A DNA stretch of 64,000 nucleotides, taken from Lytechinus pictus. Its lineage: Eukaryota. This document shows, one piece after another, positions 6,062-60,486 of this stretch. The translations under genes were made by a program, and so were the position numbers. Under the pieces are notes generated by a model, which ran no database searches, was not told the origin of the DNA, and saw only the letters and a list, made by a program, of their open reading frames with translations. Position 1 is the stretch's first letter. Every line of letters starts with the position of its first letter. The DNA lies in assembly GCF_037042905.1 (NCBI RefSeq), contig NC_087251.1, forward strand, positions 3,288,001-3,352,000, written 5' to 3'.

Positions 6062-7849
<1,788 letters not shown>

Positions 7850-32962: not shown

Positions 32963-35098
32963 CAGGGCTCCACACTTACCCTTTTTTTCTACTGGTCCAA
33001 CCTATTCATGTCGGACCAGTAGATACCCAGTTTTTCCATTTTTTACTGGTCCGAACCTAAAATCTACTGGTCCCCAAAATAAAGAAAACATTAAAAAAAG
33101 GCGTGAGTTTATTTTGCTGTCCTTTCTTGTTACCCCCCCCCCCAAAAAAAAATGAAGGAATGAAAGACAAAAAGAAAGCAAGACAAAAAGAAACAAAGGA
33201 AGAAATAATAAAAGAAAGGAAGGAAGAACAAATAAAAGGTAAAGAAAGGATAGATGTGAAGGAAGGAAAAAATAAAGAAAAAAAGAAAGAACAAAAGAAA
33301 AAAAAGGAAAGAAAGAAAAAACAAAAGACAGAAAGTAATGAAAAAAGGAAAGAAGCAATAAAATAAGAAAGAAAGGGTATAAGGAAAGATGGAAAGAAGG
33401 AAAAAAGATAGAAAGAAAGAAAGAAAGAAAGGAAGAAAAGGGTAAAGAAAGGATAAATGTGAAGGAAGGAAAAAAAGAAAGAACTGAAGAGGGAAAGGAA
33501 GGAAGGAAAGAAAGAACAAAAATAAGAAAGAAAGAACAAAAGAAAAAGAAGAAATAAAGGAATGAAGGAAAGAAAGAAAGAAGGAAAGAAATGAAGCAAG
33601 CAATATAGAAAGAAAGAACAAAAGACAGAAAGAAGGAAAGAAGCAATAAAAAAAGAAAGAAAGGGTAAAAGGAGAGATGGAAAGAAGGAAAAAAGAAAGA
33701 AAGTATTGAAAGAAGGAAGAAATAAAGAAAGGTAAAATGATAGATAGAAGGAAAAAAGAATGAAGGAAAGAAGGAAGGAAGCAAGCAAGCAATAGAAAAA
33801 AGAAAGAAAATGTAAAATAGATGAAAGTAAGAAAAAAAAGAAAGTCCAAAAGACAAAGAAAGGAAGGAATGAGGGAAAAAAAAGAACGAAAGAAGAAAGG
33901 AAAGGAAGCAAGCAGTAAAAAAAAAAAAAAAAAAGGTAAAAGGATAGATGGAATGAAGGGAAAAAAGAAAGAACAGAAAGGAAGGAATGAATGAAAGAAA
34001 GAGAGAAAGGGCTGAAAGAAGGAAGAAATAAAAAACAAGAAATGGTAAAGAAAGGATGGATGGAATGAAGAAAGAAACAAAGAATGAAGGAAAGAAAGGG
34101 TAAAAAGAAGGAAAGGAAGAAAGAAAGAAAGAAGAGATAAATATAGGATGGATGGACTCAAGAATTAAAGAAAGAAAGAAATCAAAAAAGAAAGAGAAAA
34201 AGAAATAGAGAAAAATGTTAAAAGGACAGAAAGAATGAAAGAACGAAAGACAAAGAATAATTAAAAAAGAAAGACAGTAACAAAAAAAATTAAAGAAGAG
34301 AGGGAAGAAACAAAGAAAGATTGAAAAGAAAGAAAGAAAGAAAGAAAACAGAGGAAGAAAGCTAAAACTATCATAAATAAATTATCAGTTTCTTTTTGGC
34401 TCAATTAAGATATAGCTACGAAAGAAACCAAGTGTATCAACACACACACAAATGCATATGTGGGGCTATCATGTATTCAGACGATATCACTCGAAACCCG
34501 ATCTCTTTGAACTAAAACAGAAGTGAAAATTTCTCCTTTTACTGCTTACAAATGACAGTTACCCCAATTTTTAGGAAATATGGACATTATAAGAGCTTTT
34601 CATTAGTGTGAAATGTGAATTTTGACCGTTCTGTGAGAGATTTCTGCCAGAGGTTTGCCAAGCTTCGCCAAGCTTCGTTCGTGCAGCCAGTAGAAAATTC
34701 ACCATGTGGGCTGTGTGGCTGGCTAGCCATATGTACACTGTATGTTACCGTAGTAAAAATTGCATGCGATTCATTCTGTGTGTATTCTGTGTGTGAATGA
34801 CCAAATTTAACGGGAGGAAAATGGTTTGCAATTTGAGTCATGGAATATTTTTTATGTTTATGTTGGACTAGTGAATTTGACCATTTCTGGAAAAGTTACT
34901 GGCCCAACAATGGTTTTTATTACTGTTTATGTCGGACCCATAAATCTTGCTATTTTTGGAAAAATTACCGGCCCGACAATGATATTTTCTTACTGGTCTT
35001 GTCGGACCAGTAAATCTTGCTATTTCTGAAAATCTACCGGCCCGACAGTGATTTTTACCGGTCTGGGACCGTCGGACCGGCGCTAGTGTCGAGCCCTG
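32963..35098. mobile_element. TIR element with 7-bp TSD containing a purine tract
   Basis: CAGGGCTCCACACT ... AGTGTCGAGCCCTG; GTATACC at 32956-32962 and 35099-35105; subterminal actggtcc/ggaccagt repeats. Confidence 0.88.
33150..34360. repeat. ~1.2-kb polypurine (GAAA/GGAA) tract
   Basis: Almost entirely A/G; source of the spurious F/S/L-rich minus-strand ORFs. Confidence 0.95.
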
Positions 35099-35469: not shown

Positions 35470-36300
35470 CTCACAAAGTTTGTCAAAGTATAAGAGTGCA
35501 GGACTGGATGGCATCCACCCATGTGTTTTGAAGGTAACTGCTGTTTCTATCGCAAGGCCCCTTGCCTTGATCTACAATTCTACAATGCATCACTAAAAGA
35601 GGGCAAACTACCAAGTGTCTGGAAGGTCAGTCATGTAGTACCTGTGCACAAATACAGGCAGCAAGGTGGATGTTAGAAATTACAGACTAATCAGTTTGAC
35701 CTCTGTACCTTGCAAAATCCTAGAATCACTTATTCGGGATGAAATAGTTAGCCACCTTATAGAAAATGATCTTCTGTGTGATGAACAGCATGGCTTTTTC
35801 CCTGGACGCTCATGTGTGACAGAGCTCTTTATGGTTATGGAGGAATGGACAGAGATGATGGATGTAGGAAATCCTATTGATGTGATCTACCTGGATTTCA
35901 TAAAAGCTTTGATAGTGTTCCTCATCTGCGTCTCCTCTCCAAACTTGAGGCTTACGGTATAGGTGGTGAAATCAAAGCCTGGATAATTTCTCCAAGAAAG
36001 ACAGCAAGTCAATAATGAATTATCTGACTGGACAAGGGTAAGGAGTGGAGTGCTGCAAGGCAGTATCTGTGGCCCAACAATGTTTGTACTTCGCATCAAT
36101 GACCCACCAGACAGCCTACAGGGGAAAGTCAAGATATATGCCGATGACACTAAATGACAGATGCTTGACAGAGATCAGATAAGATGTATTCAGCCAGCAT
36201 GTCATCAATGACTGGAATTCGCTCCCAGAAGAGGTAGTCACTCACAGCTCAGACAGTGAACAGTTTCAAGACAAGGCTAGACAAGGTGTGGGCGGACTAG
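35470..36300 (+). mobile_element. CR1-clade LINE reverse transcriptase fragment (decayed)
   Basis: KSAGLDGIHP, NYRLISLTSVPCKILE, QHGF..GRSC, YLDFIKAFDSVPH, SGVLQGS, YADDTK, WNSLPEEVV, FKTRLD, with stops and frameshifts. Confidence 0.92.
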
Positions 36301-37245
36301 CGGTACCGGTACTGCTAACCATGTGATAAATAAACCCTACTAATGAAGAGGACGTTGTAGATTCCAAGCTACCGGTAGACTGCCGTGAAGATACCATCTA
36401 ATGAGAAGGATGAAGGCCTTGAACTGGAAGTAAGGATGCTGGTATCATCTGCACTCTTCCAGAATCTTGGATAAAGAGTAAAGATTGGGATATCCTTGTT
36501 TTCTGGTACACTCCCAGTTTTTAGACCAGCTCTCTCTTGCCTGTAGTGTAAGAGGGTCTTCCAGGACCAAGTTCAATATTCTATGATTTTTTTATGTCAG
36601 TCATATGAAACTATGACTGAGAGAACTAGATAGAGTTAGATGATATTTTTGTATTATTTTTTAATTTTTTATTTCTTTTATTTTTATTTCTTTTATTCTA
36701 TGTCTGACAATTTTAAGCGCTGTGATACTTGTGTGTCTAGGGCATATATAGATAACCATTATTATTATTATTATTATGATACCAAGCTCTATTTTCTACC
36801 GACACCAATCAAATGTGCTAGTATTACTAGTCATGTAAACATATCAGATTCTTAACAACAGCCTAAGAGGAAGAAGGAAAGTCAGAAAAAAAATGGAAAA
36901 GGTGCAAATTGTCACAGAATCTATACTTATAGGCCTACATGTAGCACTCTAAATTTCTATGATTGCCATCTATGTCCTGCAGGGGAAGTGAAAAAAAACT
37001 GTACCTGATCCTCCTTAGCAAGGACAGAAATTTATTAAGACGTGATTTGTTTTGGTTCATGAGGATATCTTTGTTTTCTGGGACAGTCATTATTTTTGAC
37101 AAGTGCCTCTACTACTAATTCAGCCAACAATGCCATGCCAGCTGCTTAAACCCACCTGTACTTTGATTGATGAACAGGCTTAGTCCTCCAACATCATCGG
37201 AGTGAAGTAAATCAAGTTTTCCCAATTAAATAGTAGAGTTTCTTG

Positions 37246-38758
37246 TTTTTGTCTCGCCTGCATAGCAGAGCGAGACTATAGGCGCCGTTTTTCCGACGGC
37301 GGCGGCGTCAACATCAAATCTAACCTAAGGTTAAGTTTTTGAAATGACATTATAACTTAGAAAGTCTATGGACCTAGTTCATGAAACTTGGACATAAGGT
37401 TAATCAAGTATTACTGAACATCCTGCCTGAGTTTCAGGTCACATGACCAAGGTCAAAGGTCATTTAGGGTCAATGAACTTTGACCATGTTGGGAGAATTA
37501 TTTTCAAAATCTTAACCAAAGGTTAAGTTTTAGAAATGACATCATAACTTAGAAAGTATATGGACCTAGTTCATGAAACTTGGGCATAAGGTTAAGCAAG
37601 TATAAGTGAACATCCTGCTCGAGTTTCAGGTCACGTGACCAATGTCAAAGGTCATTTAGGGTCAATGAACTTTGGTCAAGTTGGGGGTATTTGTTGAATT
37701 ACTATCATAACTTTGATAATTTATGGATCTAGTTCATGAAACTTGGACATAAGGTTAATCAAGTATTAGTGAACATCCTGCCTGAGTTTCAGGTCACATG
37801 ACCAAGATCAAAGGTCATTAAGGGTCAATGAACTTTGGCCAAGTTGGGGGTATTTGTTGAATTACCATCATAACTTTGAAAATTTATAGATGTAGTTCAT
37901 GAAACTTGGACATTAGGTTAATTAAGTCCCACTGAATATCCTGTGCGAGTTTCAGGTCACATGACCATGGTCAATGGTCATTTAAGGTCAATGAACTTTG
38001 GCCGTGTTGGGGGTATTTGTTAAATTACCATCCTAACTCTGAAAGTTTACCGATCTAGTTCATAAAACTTGGACATAAGAGTAATCAAGTATCACCGAAC
38101 ATCCTGTACGAGTTTCAGGTCACATGACCATGGTCAAAGGTCATTAAAGGTCAATGAACTTTGGCCGTGTTGGGGGGTATTTGTTGAATTACCATCGTAA
38201 CTCTGAAAGTTTATGGATCTAGTTCATAAAACTTGGGATATAAGAGTAATCAAGTATGACTGAACATCCCCTGTGAGTTTCAGGTCACATGACCATGGTC
38301 AATGGTCATTTACAATGTAAGGTCAATGAACTTTGGCCGTGTTTTGGGTATTTGTTAAATTACCATCCTAACTCTGAAAGTTTATGGATCTAGTTCATAA
38401 AACTTAGACATAAGAGTAATCAAGTATCACTGAACATCCTGTACGAGTTTCAGGTCACATGACCATGGTCAAAGGTCATTAAAGGTCAATGAACTTTGGC
38501 CGTGTTGGGGGGTATTTGTTGAATTACCATCGTAACTCTGAAAGTTTATGGATAGAGTGTATGAAATGTGGACATGGGTGTAGTTGACAGTCTTAAGTCT
38601 CCGTTCAAATGTCATTCATGGTCAATGAACGTGGTATTATGTCATTATATGAATGATGTTTTTGTGAATGATTATTTTATAGTAGTTTTCAAAGTTAGCA
38701 CTGCTGCTATTTTAAATTGCGTAATACAGGCGAGACTGCCAGAGGCGTTCCACTTGTT
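37246..38758 (+). mobile_element. Non-autonomous Helentron-like (HINE/DINE/pearl-type) element with an internal ~164-bp tandem array
   Basis: T-run, subTIR GTCTCGCCTG, adjacent IR GCGAGAC, (GGC)n, 7-8 core repeats (gaaacttggacataag), 3' subTIR CAGGCGAGAC at 38727-38736, short GCC-AGA-GGC stem, TT end. Confidence 0.8.
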
Positions 38759-39604
38759 ATTGTCAAGATTCACTATTGACTATTTTAAATCTGATTTCAG
38801 GATTAAATTCACACCCATCCATGATAGTGAAGTGTAACTGTAGACAGGAGATCTAGTCAGTTATCTAGAGGACTAACCTTTACCTATTTTAGACCATTTG
38901 ACCATGAGCAATTTACGGCAGAATCGAGTGTTCTAGTTTTTCTACCTCCACTCATTATAGACAATCTATCTAGTGCTCTATATTTTTTCAATATCCTTGG
39001 TAAGATTCTTTCCAGTTTGAGGCTTGTGTGGGTAAGTGTGGGTATATTTTCTAATATATCTGTGTACTTTTCCACAAACCACTCATTATTTTTTTCTCCT
39101 CACCCCTCTCAAAGTCCTAGTTCATCCTTCCCTCTACCCCCTCCCCCATTCCCAAGTTATTCCTTTTTCCCTTCTTTTCCTTTGTCTTCTTTTTCTTTGT
39201 CATCTTTTACTTCTTCTCTTTCTTCATGTTCTTTTACTTCATCATGTCCTTTTTTTCTCCTCTGTCGTCTTCTCCTCCCTCAAAGTTTCAGATGTATATC
39301 GCCATCTTTTCTTTTGTGTATGTGTTGACAGTGATGACTGGGAAAAATAATGAAACCTTACATTGTTTCATTGTCTTGCTTCACCAGCTGTCAAAAAATA
39401 TTGCATTTAAGTTTACTATACGAAAATGCTAAGCTTGAAGCCTGGAGTAAATTGGACCTCCTCGATGGATTTATCATATCTGTATTATGCATTACAAATC
39501 CAGATTTGCCATCACCTATTAAAAGAGATGTACAACATCATTCTCTATAGTGAGAATTTTTACTTTATTTTCTTTCCCTTTTGATATCCAGAATTATAAA
39601 AAGT

Positions 39605-39759
39605 ATGATGAATTTTCACCAAGCATCATTACATGGTCTCTGTTTAGCCATCTCTATGGTGATGTTATTCCAACCAGTTTTTACAGAAGAGGAACACCAT
39701 ATCAAAGTTGGTCCACCTGCTAGCCTCATCAGGGACAGGACTCATATTCAAGACAGAGA
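39605..39759 (+). CDS. MCFD2: MCFD2-like protein, signal-peptide exon (MMNFHQASLHGLCLAISMVMLFQPVFTEEEHHIKVGPPASLIRDRTHIQDR-D)
   Basis: Polypyrimidine acceptor ...tccag at 39590-39591; hydrophobic N-terminus; IRDRTHIQDR resembles MCFD2 LDKNTVHDQ; phase-2 donor GA|gtaagt. Confidence 0.85.
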
Positions 39760-40899
39760 GTAAGTTACATTTGGTAAACAATGCTACTAATCAATATGAT
39801 ATACCTACATTTGTGTATATATTTTTTTGTGTACATTTTTATTTAAAAAAAATAATAAGTTTGATTTTTTTTTTCAATTTTCATTTCAGTTTATTTTTTT
39901 TTTAGGTATGAATGATTTTATGACTGATTTGAAATAATACATACTCAATTCAATTCAATGTTCTCTTTATTTGCATAAAAACCATTCAAAAGTATATTAT
40001 CAAACAATATTTTACAGAATGCAAGCATGTCTAACTAAGCTTATCTTTAGTTTTGGTTAATCCCCCCAAACTGCAAGTCACTATTCCAATTCCAATTTCA
40101 TACTAGATTATATGAATGTGTGTGCCCTAAAATGATTATGATGTGAATGATACAAAAATAAAATGTATTTTATAGCATTAATTTACCATGATTTACATAA
40201 AAATAAGATGTCTCTTTATTTGTAAACCCTGTAAATGTAGGGGCCAATTAATCCATCCTATGTTGATAAAAGTTTATTTGGATGAAAGGTTAACAGAACA
40301 GTATAAGCAGAACCATTCTAGCAAAATTTTGATAAAACCATGAAGGAAAAAATGAAATTGTGAATTGTTTTGAAATACCAAATCACAAAAAAGTGCCAAA
40401 ATGTGGAATTGTTGAACAAAGTGTACATACATGTATCTGATCAAGGATGCAACTTTACGTTCAAAAGAAGGAACTAGTACTACTTTTTCCACATAATTTT
40501 GCCTGTAAAAAACACCCTTTTTTCTGGAAAAAAATATCATTCAAGATGGATTTCTACTTTTAATCAAATCTGAGTGGCATTCCTGTTCATTGAATGCTTC
40601 ATCATATAAGCGTTTTATCTAGTGTATGCTTTATAACCACTATCCAGGATCTCAGTGTGCTGTAAATAGTGTGATCATCACAACGTAACATTGGAGTAGA
40701 TGTACTATATGTACTGAAGATCTATTTTTAAAAAGGACTGTTGATAGAAATAACTATTGCTTGATTTTAAGTGTACATGTATGATGCTCTACTTCAAAAC
40801 CTACAATAAGTCACAATGTGTAACATGTAGGTTTTCTGTTTAAACCAAACTATTAAGTCGGTCTCCAAAACTCCATATTTGGAAATTAGCTAATCCTAA

Positions 40900-41433
40900 G
40901 GCCCCCATTCCACAGAGGGGAGACCTTTGAAGGACAATTCAAAGACCAAAGACTGGCAAGGTCTTACAGCAGTCTCCAAGATCACTTAAATCTGTCATCT
41001 GTGTGGAATGGCTCAGAAAGACCCCTCAAAGAACTCTGAAAGACTGATGGATATTTCTTGTCTTACTGGTCTTAGAGTAGTCCTATAGAGATATCTCAAT
41101 GGTCTTTCAGAGATCTTTTATGCGACGAGTGATCTTTCAGAATTTTTTCCATGGACTTTACCTGGTCTTTCAATGATCTCTCATGAGTCTTATAGTGATC
41201 TCCACAAAAATCTTGAGAGACTGCCGAAAGATCATGGAAAGACTAGAGAACTTTGAAAGTTCATTGAAAGACCACTTTAAGTCTGCTGAAAGACCATCAA
41301 AAGAAAATTTTCCTGTAACACCACTGAAAGACTGTTTTGAACCGTTTCAAAAGAAAGACCCTTGAAAGTTCAAGCAAGTTTCATTGTCTTACAGCAGTCT
41401 TTCAGAGGTCTTGCTGTCTGTGGAATGGGGGTT
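40900..41433. mobile_element. PIF/Harbinger-like MITE
   Basis: TAA|GGCCCCCATTCCACAGA ... TCTGTGGAATGGGGGTT|TAA. Confidence 0.85.
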
Positions 41434-43565
41434 TAAAGAATAACTTTTTTCTCCATTCTGTCATTATTTGACATGGTTAAAAGTTAAAACTGTACATGTA
41501 CAAGAGTTTCTTTAACACCACTTTTTCCACACTGCTGGGCATTTATCCCAGCTTGTAAGTATAAATGTGCCATTTTGGGTAAACCCAATATTCAAACTTG
41601 TTCCTCTTTCATATTCTTTAAAGAACTCTGAAATTCTCCTAAATATTGGAAATCAAGTACATGTACTTTTGTACTGTATTGTAGATCAATTTTTACAAGC
41701 TAACTTTGTTTTAAAGCTCAAGAATTTTTAAAACTTGATAAAAATCTCACCTATATTAATATTGGGCAACTTACTGTGGGCTTGAAGTGGAGGGTTATAA
41801 ATAATGGATTTTCATATAAGAACCTTGATTGATGATTATTGCATGTTAATACAGCATGGTGCATGAAACATATTTTAACATACATGTAAACCTCAGTTGT
41901 GGTAAAAAAACACAAAGGGATTTCTAACAAAATGCAACAAAGATGACTTCCAAGCATGACTGGTGTTACATGTACAGTATGCACAACTCTTGTAAAAAGT
42001 AAATAACGGCTTCTCAGTAATTATCATAAATACGCAAGTAACTTTGTCACGAAACACTTATCAGTGGTATATGCATTTCCACTTATGGTACTTGATTGTT
42101 TAAATCTAGTTTTACATACTGTATATGTTTGGCTTGCTTTTATCATGTTTATTGTCATACAAACTACATGCATGTTCTTAATAGAGCTTCCCCCTTTTTT
42201 ACACTATCCTTCAGTTGGATACTTCAGGAGGACCTTTTGAAAATATGTCAATCAGTAAAAAAAAACAGAGGATATTTTGCAAGTACAGTAAATTAAAATA
42301 AAATTTGTGAATATACACTAGTGTTAGAAAAGGAGAATTTTAGATCAAGGTATTGATCAATTTTGCAGAAATTAACTGAAACAAAATATGTTCCCAACTT
42401 CCACAAATCAGCAAGGGTTTGATTAAAAAGATCACCCTGATATCAAGTTGCTTAAAAACAATGAATGTTTTGATAAAACTCCACCAAAGATATGAACTTA
42501 ACAAATTTGTGAGGTCACATTTGACCAGCTGTCCACATGTCATGTGATACATCTTTAATTTCAAGAAATTCCCATTTGGGATGGTTCCTGGTGAGTAAAA
42601 GTACTTTCCCTTTGAAGTTTGAAGCTTGTCTGAAATAATGTGACTAATTTATTGAATTTTCTGAGAAATAAAGTATTTACGGACTGTATGGATTTTTATT
42701 CTCATGATGCAATGAGCGGCTCCTGTGTGAATAAAATCCATAACTTTGTTATTCTTTGATGAATTTCTGTCGAACCTTTAATACTCAGTTTCTCTTCATA
42801 TTTTGCTTTTAATGTCAAGTTGAATTAACCTTTAATGTCTAGCAGGTGTTTGAAAATCAATACAATCAATTTAGCAGATATTTTTCATAGAAGATAATGG
42901 GTATGTTGTATGTAAACTAGTTTTGGAAAATAAGTTAAAATTGTCTCATTTGTTGGAAGGTTAGATCTACGTGAAGTGAGATTTCTGTTTGTTGGCCAAA
43001 AGAAAAACATTTAAAGATATAATAGAGAGAGTAATTTATCTTAAATAGCAATTTGAGGAATTCTGGAAGCAGACTGAGAAACATGTAGATGAAGAAGTCC
43101 TTATTTGGTAAAAGTTATCATTCTCTAGCATACTATAGGTAATTATTATTGACCAAATCAGAACAATATATGAAAGTACACTTTACTGACTGACTGTGAC
43201 AGCTCTGTTCAACTAAGATTTTCCCCAACTAATCACATCCAAGGAATGGGCCTCTTTAGTTTAGGAGAGAAAATATAAGTGGAAAGACGTTATCCGATCA
43301 TTTCAAGTTTTAAACGTGTGGATTATTGAACCAATCATCTTTCCTTTTTTTGCTGTTGCCCAAATAAAAGTTTGATATGATTACGAGCATGTGATTTTAA
43401 AAAGACTGCAGTTTTTAGTACGGTATTTGGAATGTATTTGAATGACACATCAAGTTTATTTGTAACTTGTTAATAGGATGTGCTCATTATGAATTAAGAA
43501 CTTGGATGATGGTGTACAATGATGAGTGAGGAATCCTTTCTTTCATTCATCATTCCACCATACAG

Positions 43566-43941
43566 TCACATCAGATCCCATCTTCAAGGTACATTAGACG
43601 TTGATGCCATTGACATGTCTCCTCAAAGACTGCAGTTTCATTACTTCCACTCCCATGACATGGACCACAACAGGAAACTAGATGGTCTGGAATTGATGCA
43701 GTCCATTCTACATGTGGATGAGGGATGGAAGAATACCAGAGGAGGAGGAGGACATCATGGTGGGGTGATGTCAGAGGAGAGGATCATTGAGATAGTTGAT
43801 GTAATCTTGGAGGATGATGATATCGACCAGGATGGTTATGTGGATTATATAGAATTTTCTAGAGGACTTGATGATGGATCAACAGATGAAGAGGAGGATG
43901 ATTATGATGAGGAACAGGATTACTACAATGATGAGGATTAG
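43566..43941 (+). CDS. MCFD2: MCFD2-like terminal exon A: two EF-hands plus acidic tail (predicted 176-aa isoform)
   Basis: Acceptor ccatacag|T CAC ATC in phase 2; HIRSHLQG...MSPQRLQFHYFHSHDMDHNRKLDGLEL...DDDIDQDGYVDYIEF; AATAAA at 44224. Confidence 0.88.
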
Positions 43942-45456
43942 TTAGGATGAATATATTAATTATTGAGTGCGGAAACTGCAAGCAAATAGGCCACATTTGC
44001 TGGTTTCCCTGACAATGGTTTTCTCATTGGAGCATGTGATGAAGAAACCTGACCATAGAAAGCAGGGAGTTCGGTACTTGCCTGTAGGCCCTATATACAT
44101 GTATACCACCTTTCTCGTCTTCCTTGGCGGTCTTTATCACACAGGACTCAAAATTCAGCATCATGTGGGAGAACTGAAGGAGATGCAAAGATGGATATAG
44201 TAGCAAGATCCTAAAGTTATAGAAATAAACATGAGAATACTCCTGGATTCAATATTTTGTGAAGATTACCACAATCCAGAAAAAAATGTAACTAATGAAG
44301 AATTTAGGATTCATACATGAATGATATTGATATGTAGATAATGTGTGCTTATTGTGTGAAATGTACTGAAAATCCTTTTGACAGTAGATATCACAAAAAC
44401 CAGTATTGTATTTTTCCTTTGTAAATAAGAAGATATTGTGTTTTGTCGAGTGAATTTGGTTTTAGGGACATAAAAAATCCAGCCTTATATACATGTATCA
44501 ATCTACCAATACTGTACTCTTATAACTTTCATATTTCAATTTTCTTATGTATAGAATGCCTTTATGTATTTTAATTGTATTGTTATTTATACATCATACA
44601 TATTGCTACATTTACTCTAATAATTACATGTATATACATGTAGATCATAGATGTAAATACTGTAAAAGCTTAATTTTAATGGTGAATTTATTTTCACATA
44701 TTTGGATCTACCAATATCAAATTTCCACTTCTGCATACATGTATATATTGCCATTTTACACATGAAAATAACACCAGAATCATTAAAATCATATATACTG
44801 AATGTGTCCAAAATAGTCAAAATATAGTACTCAAAACATTACCTGAATACAAAAAGTAACACCTTTCCCTTTGAATGTAAAATTTGTATGTACAGTGTAA
44901 ATGTAATATTTATCTTCAAATGTTTGGTGTACATGTATATTGGGTTTGTAAAGCATGTTACCAAAGTCTGTGATGCGTTTTTATCAGGAATCCTGCTGTC
45001 GTGATGATCTAGTATCCAACTTTCTCATTCATTGTCTGACTTCTTTCAGACTCTCTCCATTTCGTAAAAGCATCTTTCCTGCATTTATCATTGTTTGTCT
45101 ATAATGAAATTTAAGCACTGATGATGAAGTATGCTTTTAGGAATCCCATGTTTGTCTACGATTGAAAGTAAGAATTAGTGATGAAGAAAATATGCTTTCA
45201 AGAACCCCATTCGAAAGACATGGCTCTGACTTTAGGTGTAGTGGACAGTGCACTTGACTTGTTTTTCCAACAAGTTGAGATTCTGTAATTCACTATCTGA
45301 AACCCTGAACATTGAACTTTTCTCTAATAAATATCAAGAATAATATTTCCTTCATATGTTTCCCACTATGTAGATTTAAGGTTCTTTAAGTTGTGAGTCA
45401 AGAATATTAAGGCTGCAATTGCATGTTTTCTTTGTCTCCGTGTCCTTTTAATGTAG

Positions 45457-45754
45457 CCACATACGAGAGCATCTTGATGGTATAATAGACATTGATGGCA
45501 TCCAAGAGAGTGAGATGACAGAGAAACAACTCCAACTTCACTACTTCAAACTCCATGACTATGATCATAATAACAGACTTGATGGTCTAGAGCTCCTCAA
45601 TGCTATGACACATTATCACCATGACGGCGCCCCCAATGCCGAGCCACTTAAGGAAGATGACCTTATGAACCTGATTGACCCTATTTTGAGAGATGATGAC
45701 AAGAATAAAGATGGGTATATTGACTATATAGAATATGCTGCGACACAGTCTTAA
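45457..45754 (+). CDS. MCFD2: MCFD2 terminal exon B: canonical two EF-hand domain (predicted 150-aa isoform)
   Basis: Acceptor ttttaatgtag|C CAC ATA in phase 2; HIREHLDG...[28 protein letters not shown]...[17 protein letters not shown] closely matches MCFD2. Confidence 0.93.
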
Positions 45755-46128
45755 AGAGAAATTCCAGTAGTTGCAGTAAACACTGATTTCATGAGAAAGT
45801 CTGTAAAACCAGGCTTCATTGTCAGTATATCATCGAGGATCTAGATCTGGTACAGTTACATAAACTGAACTTTGTGAAATCTTGAAATCTACGCTGAAAA
45901 ATGTTCAGACTGAACTTCCCCAACACAGATAAGCGCACGTGGGACAGTGTATAATTATTGCTTTGAGCGAATCCTGTGCTTATTTGCTGATTTCTCAGCA
46001 ATTACTCAATTTCTTCCAGAATTCTTTGGCACATGCGTTTTATTTATACAAACAGACACTTTGGTGGTCATTTCATTGGATTCTGTACGAACTCATTTTG
46101 ATATCGTTACCAAAACTAGCATTTACCT
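45755..46128. mobile_element. TTAA-type element inserted at the MCFD2 exon B stop codon
   Basis: TTAA|AGAGAAATTCCAGT ... ACTAGCATTTACCT|TTAA; imperfect TIRs. Confidence 0.65.
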
Positions 46129-48071
46129 TTAATGATGACAATAATCAGGAAAGAGACAAATTTTATTTTAGGTTCAAAACTTTTGATTAAATATCATTCC
46201 TTTTCATGGCTGGGCTTACTTTTATTGGTATTTGTCAATGACATGTAATAAGCTGAATTAGAATTAGGGAAATAATGGCCCCTATTCTCAAAAGTGGTTT
46301 CAATTGTACCAGGGTACCGAGCCATGGACTGCAGATATCTTGTATTATTGTGCTTCAATTATGTACCATTTGCCAGAAGTAGGCATTTATAATTTGACTC
46401 TTCTTTATAGTGTATGTGATGAAATGAGCGTATTACATTGTATGTACTCAAAAGTCTCAAATCTGCATATTCCATGATTTTGTACCATGAAACAATTGAA
46501 GCCTCTTGAGAATACGGGTCTACATGTATATGTAGAATCTAACATTTTTTGTGGTATGGTATATTTTTGGCACCTGAAAATGTAGTCTTTTATTTCTAAA
46601 AAGAATAATCATTCTAAACGTATCCAACACAAAGCTTTTCGAATTTGATAACCATAGTTATATTTATTTTTATGTGGGTAGATATTAATTGGAATATGTA
46701 TATGTTATTGATTATACTTAATGTATGGTGCTATTTTTGGTTGGTGAACTCAATTATTATTTTTTTTTTTATAGCCTACATTTATCTTTAGTTTTGGTAA
46801 ATCCCCCTATGAGTACATGCCACTATTCCATTTCATTACTAGATCATATTAATGCATGTGTCCTAAAACAGTTGTGATGTGATGGATATAAACTAAAAAT
46901 GTTTTTTTATTGGATAAATTTACCAAATTTACATCAGAGTTAATTTGATTTGGTGCCCAATCAAAAGAATATCTGTATTTTGTCATGTTTATATAAAATA
47001 CCTCATCAAGCATGGAATGGGCTGAAATTTCAGGATATAATCTTAGTTGGTTGCTTTCTAATATCCAATTACAAAATATGTAAAGTGTACACTCAAAATG
47101 ACATTCCATATAAAATTATAAACATTACTTAGAGAGGATGCTAGATTTGAATTAAAATCATAGACATAAGTCACATCATAACAGCTGGAAAATGCCATAC
47201 TTAAGTTCTAATGGATATAATATGTATCCATTGACTACCAAGCTCTTGTTATTTGGTTGATGATAATCAAGTATAGTTCACATTACTGACGATTTACTAT
47301 TAAAAAAAGCTAAAGACATGCTTTAATGATGAACAATTAAGGCTTTGTGATAGCATTACGCATTATTACAAGATGGATACATTCTTTTCTTGTCTTCTTT
47401 TACCAATATATTAATCACTATTCAGTATTTTGCCTTTGTTAAGATATGATATTACTGGTTAAATTTTTGAACAATTTAGAATTGATTAATGCCAGAATAG
47501 ACAGGGAATGAAGATATATCATACATTGCAATAATGTAAGTCAAAAGCAAGATATTTCATTCAACAGGATATTGTATTTGTACCATTCTTAAGTTTTTTT
47601 TTTTAAGGTCACATATTTTCAATAGCAATTCCCAATTTTCAGTGACTTGTATCAAATATTGAAGAGTCATGTATAGGGCATTGATATGTGTTTTGATAGT
47701 AAAGCTAACAGTACCGGTATATGAACATTTATATAAGAGGTGCCTTTCAAGTTTAAAAGTGCTTAATAGAGTTTATTTTATTTAATGAATATCTGTATCT
47801 TTTCTTTACAAGTGAAGCATTTTTCTTTTTGCTTCAGTTATAATGTGCATTTGATCATCTTTTATGATTTTAATTACATTGTATAAATAATTTCAATGTT
47901 ATATGTATCTCTAGTTTCCTCCTTTCTTCATGTTGTACTCTTACATGTTAAACCAGGTTCCTGTTCTAATACAGAGTTAAATAAACATCTAGTAATTCCT
48001 TGTAATACAATGAGAAGCATCTGTAAACCATTACATCAGCAAAGAATTCTATTTTGAATGGGGAAAATCAG

Positions 48072-48229
48072 GGGCCCGTTTCATAAAGTACTTGCAACTG
48101 TTTTAACTTTGCCATTATTGCATCTACCATGGTAACAGGACTCAGCAGCCAATCATAATCAAGGTTTCCATGGTAGTTGCCGTTATGGCAAAGTTACAAC
48201 AGTTGCAAGTCCTTTATGAAACGGGGCCC
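48072..48229. mobile_element. Palindromic Harbinger-like MITE
   Basis: CAG|GGGCCCGTTTCATAAAG ... CTTTATGAAACGGGGCCC|CAG. Confidence 0.85.
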
Positions 48230-49603
48230 CAGATGATCATTTAATAATCAACAATTGTTCTGAGCGCATATATAGGTTAAGTTTGCATTTTCAGATATTT
48301 CCTGATTTAAATTACTTTTTTTTTTTTTGGGGGGGGGGTGTATCGTCTCTCACACTTATGTATGTATCAATTTGTGTGTAGATTGCTATGAAGATGTTTT
48401 TATTTCAATAATGATTGTGGTGGTGGTAAAAAGTTAAAAACTAGTACTTAATACCAGCTTTTGTATCAAAGACAAGTACAGTGTATTATGCTTTAAAGTG
48501 AAGAAGATATTCTTCCATATTGTAAGTGCCTTTTGAATACATTATGCATTATCAGTGATTTCATCTGTTATATAGTCTTAGGAGATGTTGCAAGATACTT
48601 CTTTGCACTTGATTGCAAATTTCAAATCTGCAAGTGATAAAATAAATAAAAGATGAATACCTGCCATAAAACACAAATTTGCATTTAATTGCAAGACTAA
48701 TAATTAACACACATTTGGCTAATGACGACGCCCACCGATCAGAGCCTACAGGTAAACTCATATCTTCCATATATTGTATAACTTCCGAGACAAGTTCTGA
48801 CTGTATGATTATTGTATATCTTTACAGGCTCCTTAAAAGGGAATCGCATGACATGATTTTTTTTAAGGTTTGAAGTTTGATAAATTTACAAAAATTACAA
48901 GTCTGTAGCCAATTGCCTATAGCAGATGGCACTGCATGATCATTGTACATGCACTGTAGGCTGTGATGATACATGTAGGTAGACAATGTCGTAATGGTAT
49001 GATTTTGGGTAGAGGGGGGGACTCCATAAATTGTACCATTGTATGATATCTGTAAAGACTGGATGATTGTCAGATATCCCCAATAAGCACACAAGTATGA
49101 AATAGAGACTTAGAATTGATTGCAATGCCCATTAATTTAAAACTTTATCTCTGTATTAAACCTGTGTGTGAATCACCAAAGAGTAATGAATACAATATCA
49201 GTTATTTCTTTTATTTTATGTCCAACATATATGCTGAATAGTCTTGCCCAGTTGAAATATCAAATGTGATTTTCACATGTGTATTCAGTGTGATGTTCCA
49301 ATACAAGAAGAGGGAAACTACAATTGTTAAAAAAATAAAGAGAAAGGAGGAAATTGTATTTGACCTGTCCATTTTGTGATGATTACCTGTATGCCTTGAT
49401 ATTATTGTATAACATATCTCCCACTGATTTTATTTTATTTTTATTTTGACAAGATTATAAAATAAAGATTTGAATCAATAGTCCCATTTGATTAAACTTG
49501 TTAAAATAATACAATTATGATGATCGTTATCTGGAAACGAACTGGACACTATTTAATTAATTGAATTTGTCAATACTGTTGATTAGATTGACTAAGAAGC
49601 CTG

Positions 49604-49760
49604 GGGAGCGTTTCATCAACATTTTCGTCCGACAAGTTGTCAGGTCTGACAACTTTCCTTCATAATGATTGGATGAGAGGCACTGTTACCATAGTAATTG
49701 TCGGATAAAACAGTACTTGTCGGATAAAACGTTTGACAAGTCCTTTCATAAAACGCTCCC
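49604..49760. mobile_element. Harbinger-like MITE
   Basis: CTG|GGGAGCGTTTCAT ... ATAAAACGCTCCC|CTG; same family as 53200-53446. Confidence 0.85.
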
Positions 49761-52700
49761 CTGATCTCTGACTGATACTACAGGCATGTGCTATCATGGT
49801 AATTTCAGATAAAGACTTCTATCTTAAAGCTGTCACACTCGGTCTGATTTTTTTTTTTCAATTCAATGTAGTCAATCTTTTTGTTTGCAACACACTTTTT
49901 TCGGGGAGGGGGGGGGGTAAACTTGGGGGTTGTTGGGAAAAGAATTGCATCCCATACATGTAACCACGCAAATCAAATGAAACTTATATTATTACTTCAG
50001 AAATGTGACAAAAAAGTTAAATGCAAATCTTTTTGTCATTACCCCTGTTATATACTATTGTTATTTTGGTGCTACCATGGATCTGGCTCCCCTTCCTTGT
50101 TTCTAATGTAAGACACAAAAACAAAAACATATTTAAATTGAAATTGTTTTCATATATTTATTTAACAAATAGTATTGATCTTTTATCATGATTATTTATA
50201 CATTGTTTTTATGTATTTACATATCATCACTAGTTAATGTAAATAGAAAAAAGGGGAATTCCATTACAGGAAAAGAGAAAGAGAGAATATTACATTGAAT
50301 GAGGAGAGAATGAAAGGGGATTCAATGGGTACTGACTATAGGGAGGGGGTACTTAACATACAATAGTACATCACATGAATGGGCATAGTCAAATCAATAG
50401 AGAAAGCAGTGTATATACATGCTGTTTCAAAGAAAATGAATGGTGCTTAATAATTCAGAACAAAAGAAAAGAAATCAATAAAAGTTACTGAATACAATGC
50501 CATTCAGTTGATCCTTATATCCATATTTGCAAATTATGTCTCTTTAACATGTAGGTTCAATTTCAGCAAAGCAGATCAAATGTTGTACACCTACAAAAAT
50601 AAAACAAAGCTCAAAATCAATATCGCATAAATCATATCAACCTATGAAAATGTGTCAATACTGCTTGACAACTGAGTGACAATGATTAATGAATACAAAT
50701 TCTTGCAAATGTGCCCTTTACATTTTTCAAAGAGAGAAAATGAGGAATATTTTCCTGTCCATAAAGGGAAAGGTTCATCTAAATACTACTTCCTTAACGA
50801 TTAGAAACAAATTTTCTAGTACTTTGGATTCTATCATACTTCTTCCATCAAAATTTCCCTATATAAACCACACATAACACTCAATACATAGTTTTCATGA
50901 CAACTCACCAGAAGAGAGAAGTTCAAACACATTTAGAATGTGATTTTGTATAAGCTGAAGGGAAAACAGTATTACACAGAAGAAAAAGCAATATGTGAAC
51001 ATGCTCACCAAGTTAAAGCAGTTGAAGACATTATATACATACTGTACATGTATATTAAGTGTTTCCCTTCGCAGTTATTTCAACTACAATAGTTGTTTTG
51101 TTTACAAAGAGTGTTGTATATCGAATCTGTTACTTATTAACTCTTTTAGTGATTAAGTGTAATTTTAGGGGAACTGATATTTTTCAAACAACCTTGGCAA
51201 AATCACGCATCTGGCTTATGAAAAGTAATAATTAATTTATTCCAATTCGGTGGATACGCAATATGGTGCGTCATCTATCAGTTGCAGCAAACATACCAAA
51301 TTTTAAACTTCAGGGTCGACATGGCGCAAGTAGCACACAGTGCTAGTGTCCTGTATTGTGACTGTGATGCTTCAAAAATGACAACCATATGGCAAGAATT
51401 CACAAAACACGGTCTTAATTTTGTAAAGAAATATATGGGCGAATTTCTATCCCACCTCCTGTATCGGCCAGCGCTGAAAATCGCATGAAAGCATGCATTT
51501 TAGTACTAGCGTGCCCAACAGATGTCAACTTTTTCCCATGAGGCATTGTGAATTTTGGCCTGTCCGCTGCAGCTGATAGATGGCGCACCGTATTGTGAAT
51601 CCACCAAATTGCAAGAAAATTGCTTTTTTGTGAACCTAAGAAGCCCATCATGGACTTGTATTACTAAAAAATAAAGATGAAACACTATTCGAGGGTCAAG
51701 TAGAGATTTGAGCAAAAATAAAACCATGTCTTTACACTAACCGATTGAACATTATTTCTTTCTCAAGATTTCAAGGTTAAACCAGGGAGATGAGAAGCCA
51801 TTTTGAAATGTGTCAGCATTGATGCTTGTGAAAGCTCTCATGTTACAGATATCAGACCACATAATATAACCTATGACAACTCTTGTGCCAATGTGGGTAA
51901 TGAATCAATAATGTATTGGTATCAAGACATTTTATGAGATCAGTATGGACAATATACATGTATACTACATTCTCAACATTTGTTTACATCACAGAATGAC
52001 ATTATGTACATAATGCATTTGATTGAAACTTTTCACAAGATAAAATCACTGTCTTATGCATACATATTCAAATTGAATACATGTTGTGATAGAAAACATA
52101 TTCTTCATAGTACTTTTTGGTGAAAAATTAAGGAAAATAATCAAAGGTACACTTAAATGCTTGAAAGGTTTTGTATTATTTGAAAAAGCCACAAGAATAG
52201 AAACCAAGTTTCAACTGATATGTTTTTTTTTAACAGTGATGATAACAATGATCAAGTAGTCTGAATACAATAAACATGGGCATGCTGGGACCAATGAATA
52301 CTTTCAATCTGCAAGAAATGCTAACCAATTATTAACAGGTACATGACACAACATTGATCACTATTTCTTCTGAATGAAAGTATGTAAAACTGGAGATCAC
52401 ACTGCACACATCAACTGAAAACAAATAAATCCTTGCACATTAAATTAAAGGGAAATTATATACGCCAGCATTAAAACATACATGCTCATGTTTCATAGCA
52501 AATGAAAAGTAAAAGAATATATATATATGTATAAGTGGGTCATAAAATAAATCTAATATATACTTTCTATGTATATTTTTCATACATAACACTGTACAGT
52601 ATATGTAAACCACATCTTATCTGTTAAAGATGAACTTCTACACACCAACAGTAGAGGGTCAATATGTAAATATGATGTGTCATTGGCTGCATCTTACAAA

Positions 52701-57110: not shown

Positions 57111-59090
57111 CTAAAATAAACACATTAAAAAAAGGAAAAGATCGATATAGGGTTAAACATTAAAAAATATATATTAATTTGAGGCTAAAGTGAGATAATC
57201 ATTTTAATTTTTTTTGTGTAGCTTTTTTTGTGTAGCTTTGCCAGATCCATCAGAGCACTACAAATGGCGACACTAAATTTGTTCCTGGGACAATTGATCT
57301 CGCCTATACAGGTACAGTCAGGGAAAGGGATTTGAGAGGACTTTTAGTTTAAGAAAAATGTGAGGATTAAGATTAGGGTAAGGAGTTTGAGTTTAAATTT
57401 AAGTTTTGTTTGATGTACAGATTTTGTGAATGCCATGGATCCTAAACAAATGAAGAAAAGATAGCAAACTCAATAGATAATAATGCAATTGCTATTTCAA
57501 AGACATAGTATCCCGGTACTGGTATTTTAAAATATTTTTTTACAAAAGTGTGAAACATCATCGAAAGAACCTTTTTTGAAAGCATCATTAACTACAAGCA
57601 GTCATTTCTCGTGTTATGTGCTATGTGCACATGTACCTGTTTTTTTTTTTAACAGTCTACATTACTATCTATTCATCAAAAATAAACAGGTTACAATTTC
57701 AAATTGTATTACATCAAATTATTTAATCAAAATATAATTATTGTCATCAAATTGAAGTAGGGACCCATGAAAAAAAATCAACCTAAATTGGGTACCTCTT
57801 ACTATGTCTCATTCATATCATTATTCTGATCATCATACATTTTAAGAAATATAAGGGGCTATTCATGCTTTGAATAACAATGTGAGAATTATTAAAGCCA
57901 AAGTACAGTATTGGCCTGCAACCAAAATAAATTTATGTGGTTTCCTTCAATCTTATACTAGCCAACAAATTAGCTGTAAACATAACATTATCACAGAATC
58001 GATGCTCAAATCTACAAACAATAATACTGTCAATAGTCAAATGAAATAGAAGCAGCAAACAATATACTGAAAGCTGCTCTGTTAATCTGAACATTCTTCA
58101 GTCCAAAATCATCATATGGGGCAATCAAGGTCATATTCGAAATGGGTCAATTGGATTTTACTGTTTGTTGAAAATTTATTTCCAAGTAAAAAGGTCTTGC
58201 ACCATCCTATCTTCCTATTTTCTGCAGCTTATAATCTCAAAATTTAGGTAATATCATTTATGAAAACATTTTCTCTAAAAGCAAATATTTAGGAATACAA
58301 CTGGTAATATGTGCATAGCAGAGTCACTATTTAAACAGGTGGTATTTTTCTATTTATATACATTTATAGCAAAAAAAAGAGGTATTGATGAATATTTTCT
58401 TTCCATCAGCGTGTGATGTCATGTCTGGAATGCAATCCATTAGGGGAAATGGGTAGTAGCCCATCAATGACTTCCTTGAAATACTATCCAGGATATGGTC
58501 TGAAAAATTGTTTCCAGCTCTCATTACAAAGAGAAAAATATATCAAAGACTGAAAGTAGATTTGGCTTAACTCCCATTTATTTACTTTTTATGGGCTTTT
58601 AAATTCATCATTCCCAGAAGAGAGGCAAGGCTAGGATGGGGTAGTACATTAAATCAGAAGAGAGTAACATCGGAGTACTGGAAAGATACAAATGCTCCCC
58701 CCCCCCCCATCTCTGTAGAAAATGAATTAATAAATTCACCCATAATTAACGAACAACTAGAGAGAAATAAAGACAGATGGAGAAAGAGGAGGAGGGACAG
58801 AGAAAGATGGAGATACAGACTGACATAGAGAGATAAAAAGAGGAATAGAGGGAATGTGTATGGGAGGAACAAACAAAGAGGAGTGGATAAAATCAAAGTT
58901 TGAGCTAGGTATATGGTAAGAGTTATGGCTAGAATTACTTCAAACATAGTTCAAATTAGAATAAGCAAAGACAACAAAATTGAGAGAGCTACTTAAACAT
59001 AATTTACATAAAACGAGTCAATGTATGATATTCAAACCACTTTTTTATTTCACGGTGTACCATCACATCACTTTCTATTTTCAAAATTAC

Positions 59091-59297
59091 CTTCTGGGTG
59101 AGTTTGTAGAACTTGCTGTTGGCGCTGCAACGTAGAAGGCAATTCATTAAGCCTGAGGGAGAGTTGACGCTTAAATGGTGTAGCTTCATTGATTTTACCA
59201 AGGCGTACAGAACCTTGCCTGATCAACATATCACTGCTAGCATGTCGTCTTGGGATAGCATGAGGCAATGGAGCCTTGTCCTTTTCTGTAGGAATTT
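59091..59297 (-). CDS. numb: Numb, NumbF-domain exon (PHAIPRRHA...RQGSVR...PFKRQLSLRLNELPSTLQR)
   Basis: Strong match to the Numb family motif; 207 nt, phase 1-1; acceptor tttcacag, donor G|gtaatt; PTB exons not in the window. Confidence 0.95.
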
Positions 59298-60486
59298 CTG
59301 TGAAATTAAAAGACAGGATTCTTATGTGCTTACTTCAACTTCACCTTCATATCAATCTTATTTCCATCATATCTTATCTTATCTTGTCTTTCATACTTTA
59401 CACATCATTCATCATTGAATAATTTATGTTACATGTATAGCAACTGATAATAATATATCAACATGTGGTGAGTTTTTGTATGTTATATAGGCTACATGTT
59501 TCATGATGTAGTTCAGTTTATTTGGACCTTTTCAGATTTTGAAAATAAACCAGTTACTCAATCAATCAAAACAAACAAAATAAATGTTCGATTGAAAATC
59601 TGTGATTAAAGATTGCAGTTATTAAACCATGCAGTCTGATGTGAGTTTATACACAAAAAAACCTCAACAATTAAGAATAACTAACAATGACAATAACCCC
59701 TTAAAGGAAATCCTGAAAATCATTCCCAGTTACATTATTTTTTTTTAAAGGTAAGATACAATGGAGTGCCTCATTAAAACATAATTTAGCAGTATTAAAG
59801 ATGGTATACATAATTTCTGAAGATTTAAGGTCACTTGGGTGTATTAGATTCCAAATAATCATTTTCCTTCCCCAATTTCTATTTCAAAATACATGTAGGC
59901 CTACATGTTCCTGGCAGAAATATTTCCAAAGAAATCTAACAATTAGAGAACATGTCAATATTGTCCATTATAAAATATAGTTATCAATGTTGTTTCATAC
60001 TTGTGTTGGCTATTTTGTTCTTCATTATGAAAAAAGGAGAAAGAATGGACAAATTAATAAAAAAGATAGATAATTATATTGCAACATGGATAAAAGTTTC
60101 ATTTACCTAACATAATGTATCAGCCAACAATATCCTAACAATATACTGTAATGCCCTTTAATTATTAAGCAGGTGTTATTCATCTGTTATGACAGTATTA
60201 TATAGCTAGAGGGAGATTCCTTTTCTACCTGTCAAATATGATTTTCCATACAATAATCACTTGAAGTAAGTATGGCTTGTTTAAATGAGACAATTAAAGG
60301 GTATGGTCAAATGTGTATCATATGATCACTGTGATGAATAAAGTATGAACCTGCACAAATTTATTGGGCTAAACTTCTATTGTAACTTTTATATCAACAG
60401 CTTTGGGTATTATGGTTAGTAGCATTTAGATTTTTTTTTTTTTTTTTACAATTAAAGAACCTTACAATAAAAGAAAATAAATTTTA

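Follow-up and report, generated by a model that had tools for sequence, protein, structure and literature searches.

One signal-peptide-like leader exon and two alternative EF-hand terminal exons in the MCFD2 gene of the sea urchin Lytechinus pictus

The coding region of human MCFD2 is split over three exons and, to our knowledge, no alternative EF-hand domain of MCFD2 is known in vertebrates. The human protein (PDB 2VRG, 3A4U, 3LCP, 4YGE and 8JP4), a soluble subunit of the LMAN1/ERGIC-53 cargo receptor, has a signal-peptide-like N-terminus followed by one EF-hand pair with canonical calcium loops. According to the excerpted text of PMC10944485, it binds zinc through His51, His55, His99 and His101, and this cluster keeps a lid formed by the N-terminus hooked across the site that binds FV and FVIII. 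Excerpts of two further papers state that it is not yet known which signals LMAN1–MCFD2 recognises and that, of the two partners, MCFD2 is probably the one that primarily binds cargo (PMC10119632, PMC10317151). The other system of relevance is the class of tandemly duplicated alternative exons, in which homologous exons lie in tandem and in the same phase and one or other enters the mRNA; such exons are described, in the excerpted sources, as rare, often ancient and functionally important (PMC9013439, PMC9741552, PMC8373072). Here we describe the MCFD2 gene of Lytechinus pictus, which lies on the + strand of a 64,000-nucleotide stretch of DNA (RefSeq assembly GCF_037042905.1, contig NC_087251.1, positions 3,288,001 to 3,352,000), hereafter the window, in whose positions all coordinates are given. 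An initial annotation of the window had proposed that one leader exon can be joined to either of two paralogous EF-hand exons. These homologous exons, A and B, lie in tandem and in the same phase behind one donor, and the event is one of tandemly duplicated alternative terminal exons, a known class. Unlike other members of that class, urchin MCFD2 swaps nearly the whole mature protein and not a segment; unlike the human protein, the urchin domain exists whole in two alternative versions.

The shared leader exon occupies 39592–39759 (+ strand), as judged from the sequence, its translation and RNA contigs which cover exactly this interval at depths of 196 and 101. It comprises a 13-nt part of the 5′ untranslated region (UTR), an ATG at 39605–39607 and 51 codons plus two bases (GA) that run up to a phase-2 donor, GA/gtaagt (the slash marks the splice site). 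The translation reads MMNFHQASLHGLCLAISMVMLFQPVFTEEEHHIKVGPPASLIRDRTHIQDR, followed by the GA of the split codon, which ends at 39759; by eye, the hydrophobic stretch GLCLAISMVMLF within it resembles a signal peptide. The RNA contigs of the leader all have their first base at 39592, directly behind an AG acceptor; one of them carries 37 extra letters that match nothing in 38700–48000, thus at least one 5′-UTR exon lies upstream of 38700. Exon A is located at 43566–43941 (+ strand). Its acceptor, ccatacag/T at 43565/43566, follows a polypyrimidine tract; the split codon is completed as GA+T, giving Asp, and the frame continues with HIRSHLQG. The exon holds 124 codons up to a TAG stop at 43939–43941, for a form A of 176 residues. 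The MCFD2 EF-hand pair that the exon encodes is diverged, has a longer Gly/His loop and is followed by an acidic tail rich in Tyr. Exon B (45457–45754, + strand) is built alike: the acceptor aatgtag/C at 45456/45457 also follows a polypyrimidine tract, GA+C again gives Asp, HIREHLDG follows, and 98 codons of a canonical MCFD2 EF-hand pair end at a TAA stop at 45752–45754, giving a form B of 150 residues. By reading, neither form ends in a KDEL-like C-terminus. The initial annotation had described one leader ending GA/gt in phase 2 and two exons with good acceptors, completion of an Asp codon, a HIRxHLxG opening, two EF loops, their own stops and products of 176 and 150 residues, all of which sequence and translation bear out; it had placed the ATG correctly at 39605 and the start of the leader exon wrongly at that ATG, the RNA contigs beginning at 39592.

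Four public runs were mapped on 38700–48000. Two of them (X19 and X20) consist of raw, stranded, ribosomal-RNA-depleted RNA reads with the same species label as X15; the other two (X1 and X15), from two further studies, are presumed to be contig runs and are not recorded as RNA, yet hold spliced joints. The junction 39759>45457, which joins the leader to exon B with GT..AG borders, is present in all four runs (5 reads in X19, 4 reads in X20, depth 182.2 in X1 and 120 in X15). The junction to exon A, 39759>43566, has the same borders and is present in three of the four (no read in X19, one in X20, depth 11.7 in X1 and 10.3 in X15). The first mate of the junction reads always maps to the minus strand, which in stranded libraries of the usual type corresponds to + strand RNA. 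Exons A and B are each joined to donor 39759 and therefore belong to isoforms of one gene, not to separate genes: there is one transcription unit with one donor, two acceptors and two coding ends. Form B, the canonical orthologue, is the major form and form A the minor form in all four runs. The excess of form B is 12- to 16-fold by contig depth, 9:1 by junction reads and approximately 3- to 5-fold by rescaled, sparse raw depth per bin. The long 3′-UTR of form B is assigned to 45755–48000 (+ strand), where read depth continues up to the end of the mapped stretch; reads here are mostly first mates on the minus strand, again corresponding to + strand RNA, and an AATAAA is found at 47980–47985. 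A six-frame search of the 812-Mb genome assembly returned only these two MCFD2-like EF-hand exons and only one leader-like sequence. Both junctions named in the initial annotation are thus present in RNA-derived data, its statement that no second leader was seen holds across the assembly, and the separate leader that it had allowed for exon B is contradicted by the joint between exon B and the shared leader. We consider it highly probable that this is a single MCFD2 gene with two alternative terminal coding exons.

The family to which both products belong had been named in advance as MCFD2, an assignment that protein comparison confirms. The exon B product matches four sequences of human MCFD2 structures with expectation (E) values of 2.9e-31 to 1.1e-26, the next family being the guanylyl-cyclase-activating proteins at 3.6e-05 or weaker; the exon A product matches the same four sequences at 2.1e-22 to 1.4e-18 and nothing else under 0.001. 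Compared with one another, the two exon products share 42 identities over 101 positions (E 2e-26), a likeness that is not due to chance. The Pfam EF-hand_7 model scores 36.6 bits for exon B, above its 30-bit cut-off. Both 12-residue EF loops of exon A, DMDHNRKLDGLE and DIDQDGYVDYIE, are canonical, with D/D/N/D/E and D/D/D/D/E at positions 1, 3, 5, 9 and 12; the loops of exon B, of the same length and also canonical, have D/D/N/D/E and D/N/D/D/E. The exon A product was modelled with AlphaFold from an assembled 34-row alignment. The four EF helices have predicted local distance difference test (pLDDT) values of 86–92 and the overall mean is 68.1; the first 14 residues, the loop 58–65 and the tail 104–124 are of low confidence and are modelled as disordered. 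When this model was searched with Foldseek, the best 20 rows listed were all MCFD2 chains, and it superposes on the LMAN1-bound crystal forms of MCFD2 with target-normalised template modelling (TM) scores of 0.88–0.94. Judged by sequence, both products are members of the MCFD2 family. Searches of the genome revealed one lectin gene of the ERGIC-53 type and one of the VIP36 type, counts which are lower bounds; the ERGIC-53/LMAN1-type gene is split into exons there. With one ERGIC-53-type lectin gene, both forms would meet the same partner.

Residues of known function were located by aligning exon B with the human MCFD2 structure (chain number +22). The equivalents of His51 and His55 fall in the HIxEH motif at the start of each urchin exon, those of His99 and His101 in THVH. 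All four zinc-site histidines are present in 17 of 17 echinoderm-type B and vertebrate rows of the alignment, and mostly in the remaining rows too, Lineus and Dimorphilus being exceptions. Form B, like the human protein, thus keeps the complete four-His site. Form A does not: in all six echinoid-type A rows the four positions read H,H,H,D (HIRSH...LHVD), with Asp in place of the His101 equivalent, and in the three holothurian A rows they read H,D,H,D, with Asp at the second and fourth. The echinoid-type A rows also have a longer loop with GHH or GH after LHVD; in L. pictus form A the α3–α4 loop is lengthened with GGGGHH relative to human MCFD2, which also has no counterpart of the acidic tail. 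The four-His difference touches regulation, not family membership as usually defined. In excerpts of PMC10119632, D81, D129 and Y135 are positions of human MCFD2 disease or study variants; the equivalent residues in the alignment are unchanged in forms A and B. The C-terminal tail of exon A is DDGSTDEEEDDYDEEQDYYNDED, and a comparable acidic tail with two Tyr sites occurs in L. variegatus and S. purpuratus. Such a tail was not found at the holothurian A-type ends in the protein models. The motifs DDYDEE and DYYNDED in the urchin tail look like tyrosine sulfation sites and may be such.

The same pair of isoforms is observed in other echinoderms. A word-indexed protein search with exon A returned three proteins, including L. 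variegatus isoform X1 (178 residues) at 95% identity. The search with exon B returned 377 proteins, the best match among the 120 listed being L. variegatus isoform X2 (150 residues, 98%). Both L. variegatus isoforms begin with the 51-residue leader of L. pictus, identical throughout. S. purpuratus has an A-type protein (XP_030855342.1, isoform X1, 179 residues) and a B-type protein (XP_011681629.1, with no isoform label shown), whose leaders differ at two positions and which diverge at the same switch point. The sea cucumber Apostichopus japonicus, found among the 120 listed of 633 hits in a profile search with A-type sequences, has isoforms X1 (212 residues) and X2 (202 residues) on one contig, identical as far as ...HIQDRE and different thereafter. 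Further A-type domains occur in a Holothuria leucospilota model, in the database proteins P0006, P0127, P0287 and P0289 and in members of an S. purpuratus cluster; the EF-hand domain is open throughout in all nine of the A-type sequences found. The RefSeq pairs resemble that of L. pictus in having a shared leader and a switch just before the HI(R/K/M) motif. They differ in being automatic models and in that holothurian A ends without an acidic tail and lacks the His55 equivalent, the holothurian pair being known from protein models. The isoform pair is therefore already present in the RefSeq models of L. variegatus, S. purpuratus and A. japonicus, mostly labelled X1/X2. Judged by titles and abstract openings, no paper on alternative MCFD2 EF-hand exons in echinoderms was found. 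As far as our search reached, three points are not in print: the exchange takes in the entire domain by which MCFD2 binds cargo and receptor, the switch is common to sea urchins and sea cucumbers, and the variant differs at zinc-latch residues.

A repeat scan of 39700–46200 did not find likeness between exons A and B at the DNA level. Over 95 aligned codons, the two are identical at 54.7, 70.5 and 40.0% of first, second and third positions respectively; third-position identity of 40% and the lack of a DNA repeat indicate that the duplication is old. Within the EF-hand domain, 101 of 102 residues of A and 96 of 98 of B are identical to L. variegatus, and 87 of 99 (87.9%) and 93 of 98 (94.9%) to S. 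purpuratus. Among echinoid-type A sequences the one furthest from L. pictus A is P0287, at 61.9% identity, and Diadema B is 84.5% identical to L. pictus B. Exon A evolves two to three times faster than exon B, with its frame open and both loops kept. These identities, together with the A-type exons of the relatives, support the old duplication under selection that had been suggested from the window.

Whether the echinoid and holothurian A exons descend from one duplication was approached with trees. For the first, 119 proteins were picked, of which eight split matches and one short sequence were dropped; in the resulting 110 rows the A clade falls within an unresolved polytomy. The second was built from 35 rows chosen from 633 and 532 hits, using 100 of 111 columns. 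Support in this tree is 100/98 for echinoid A, 98/93 for holothurian A and 97/87 for echinoid B, and A. japonicus B groups with echinoid B at 93/78; echinoid A and holothurian A join at only 79/85, a node that carries a long-branch warning. Constraining echinoid A to group with echinoid B costs 11.6 log-likelihood units (p 0.057 in the approximately unbiased (AU) test), and constraining holothurian A to group with A. japonicus B costs 9.6 (p-AU 0.068), so lineage-specific duplications are not rejected by these tests. Raw identity gives no sign of A-to-A orthology: L. pictus A is 42.9% identical to A. japonicus A and 41.1% identical to L. pictus B. On balance we lean towards a single origin of the echinoid and holothurian A exons. 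Parallel duplications, if true, would be a curiosity of their own.

In outline, an unseen 5′-UTR exon and the leader are spliced, on the + strand, to one or the other of the two homologous terminal coding exons that lie in tandem. The leader supplies the signal-peptide-like stretch and the start of the N-terminal segment, and each terminal exon encodes the "lid" pair of histidines (HIRxH), the two EF-hands and a stop of its own. Use of the distal acceptor at 45457 removes exon A within a 5.7-kb intron and yields the canonical 150-residue MCFD2; use of the proximal acceptor at 43566 yields the 176-residue minor form, from a transcript that either ends near the AATAAA at 44224 or reads on. We propose that form A is functional and under selection, as a variant of the soluble protein that partners a single ERGIC-53/LMAN1-type lectin. 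From its sequence it appears to keep calcium binding and the residues of the human disease mutations, with an altered zinc latch (H,H,H,D for H,H,H,H, and a new GGHH loop) and, in echinoids, an acidic Tyr-rich tail. Such changes might shift the range of cargo or the control by metal and would not abolish function. This functional part of the proposal, taken alone, is tentative, and we put it at a little under an even chance; gene structure and function taken together appear probable to us. A further extension, that the switch has a single origin older than the divergence of sea urchins from sea cucumbers and was retained thereafter, such that one LMAN1 receptor would have two cargo-binding subunits, the zinc-latched canonical one and another whose latch is rebuilt (His to Asp) and which would capture or release other cargo or respond differently to Golgi zinc, is speculative and on present evidence unlikely.

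Several observations weigh against this proposal. The exon A junction is represented by the single raw read in X20 and one contig each in X1 and X15, and form A is 3- to 16-fold rarer than form B by what are crude measures. The Pfam EF-hand_7 score of exon A, 28.1 bits, lies just under the 30-bit cut-off. Asp can ligate zinc too. Diadema setosum and Amphiura filiformis have B-type only among the listed proteins, which are gene models and not genomes. In addition, exon A may be something other than a true last exon with a poly(A) site of its own, because contigs run from exon A to exon B: a 1951-nt contig in X15 extends from the leader junction across exon A as far as 45486, and three contigs in X1 (depth 5.2–11.7) cover most of that interval. 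A de Bruijn contig is a path through shared words and no proof of single molecules, and unspliced RNA could fill the interval. The probable 3′-UTR of form A, assigned from sequence and the AATAAA at 44224–44229, spans 43942 to approximately 44250 (+ strand). Raw-read depth is 4.08/2.48 in the bin 43676–43986, falls to 0.97/0.77 in the bin 43987–44297 and is zero in the three bins covering 44298–45230, a drop that fits an end of form A near this AATAAA. A table of molecule ends over 38700–48000 in the four runs shows no place where many molecules end. The initial annotation was thus right about the position of the AATAAA, and a role of this signal as the 3′ end of form A is partly supported, raw depth being zero past the bin 43987–44297 and the contigs of X1 and X15 continuing unbroken to exon B. 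Reading through of A transcripts into exon B is possible; the form A protein would be the same with or without it, because exon A carries its own stop.

The scarcity of form A (one of ten raw junction reads, and a contig depth approximately 1/12 to 1/16 that of B) and the faster evolution of exon A would also be expected of a decaying or noise-level exon, whose proximal acceptor is used occasionally with no selected product. We regard this as very improbable: the frame is open and the EF loops canonical in echinoid A sequences 62–99% identical to that of L. pictus, an alternative exon occurs at the same position in two holothurians, and 88% of amino acids are identical to S. purpuratus, third positions compared with exon B being near saturation; the NCBI pipeline, moreover, models form A in three species. 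Two separate genes, nested or in tandem and each with its own first exon, might be suspected from low contig coverage at 42432–43565, upstream of exon A (depth 1.4–9.4, X1 and X15), and from in-frame intronic ATGs at 43519 and 43522 just before it. The joining of exons A and B to the same donor at 39759, the lack of a second leader-like sequence in the genome and the lack of raw RNA read coverage at 42432–43364 make this arrangement barely conceivable; a product started at an intronic ATG would, in addition, lack the signal peptide.

Form A might, on the other hand, no longer be an LMAN1 subunit and might act, for instance, as a secreted calcium-binding factor. As excerpted, PMC10317151 reports that MCFD2 is held in the endoplasmic reticulum–Golgi intermediate compartment only via LMAN1 and is secreted without it; a KDEL-like motif stands at the end of neither urchin form, and form A is far from form B (41% identity), with the longer α3–α4 loop and a 21-residue tail modelled as disordered. 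Nevertheless D81, D129 and Y135, at which human mutations abolish LMAN1 binding, are conserved in form A, and its model superposes on LMAN1-bound MCFD2 with the TM-scores of 0.88–0.94 given above. We therefore rate a secreted derivative as unlikely. Should the two forms instead be alternative subunits of one receptor, as we propose, one gene would provide two versions of a whole cargo-binding domain and with them a matched pair for studying cargo choice by MCFD2. The members of the pair have a common leader and probably a common partner, and they differ at the zinc-latch residues, which are proposed to gate cargo binding in the excerpted text of PMC10944485. If the two-subunit switch is true, it is a natural experiment on MCFD2 cargo selection. 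The practical value of the finding is modest, since events of this kind are known and RefSeq already contains the isoforms.

The intron around exon A has some features of its own. Immediately before the exon, 43510–43565 can be read in frame with it as MMSEESFLSFIIPPYS followed by HIR..., and the open reading frame P0278 of the S. purpuratus cluster contains a near-identical intronic translation, MSEESFLSSITPPYS followed by HIR.... The match indicates that 45 nt upstream of acceptor A are conserved between genera, perhaps for the control of splicing. The repeat scan of 39700–46200 found no long stretch of the donor region that is complementary to the region of either acceptor. The contig coverage at 42432–43565 is flanked by none at 41499–42431 and has no counterpart in the raw RNA reads; it could stem from a retained intron, from carried-over DNA or from transcripts with an internal start. 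In the first intron, 40882–41451 holds an element of approximately 570 bp with 35-nt inverted repeats (77% complementary), to which reads from both strands map at high depth and with many differences; it is a multi-copy repeat resembling a miniature inverted-repeat transposable element (MITE). A second multi-copy repeat, at approximately 45751–46132 in the 3′-UTR of form B, reaches a depth of about 25,000 in the contig runs and 140–330 in the raw reads, with loose ends piling up at 45751, 45968/45969, 45983 and 46132. This is a repeat or a transcribed element of very high abundance, and the region 36000–50000, this stretch included, gave no match in Rfam and tRNA scans.

Further features surround the gene within the window. 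Just upstream, 37316–38575 is a tandem array of about six copies of a 163–192-bp unit with 87–91% matches, and depth is very high at 38700–38758. Beyond the array lie a reverse transcriptase fragment at 35639–35959 (+ strand; RVT_1, E 8.1e-06), a retrotransposon remnant, and a degenerate GAAA microsatellite of approximately 1.2 kb at 33154–34347. An open frame at 7400–7849 on the − strand begins, by eye, with a histone H3-type tail and leaves the histone sequence after it, as an intron-containing H3 variant gene would; in Pfam this frame has only a weak PAF match. Downstream of MCFD2, an open frame at 59071–59334 on the − strand contains a NUMB domain (PF06311, E 3.8e-21), which points to a Numb-like gene on the opposite strand. 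Between the two, near-perfect long hairpins were read at 48060–48235 (GGGGCCCGTTTCATAAAG...CTTTATGAAACGGGGCCCC) and at 49600–49770 (GGGGAGCGTTTCATCAAC...TTTCATAAAACGCTCCCC), and both look like MITE-type elements.

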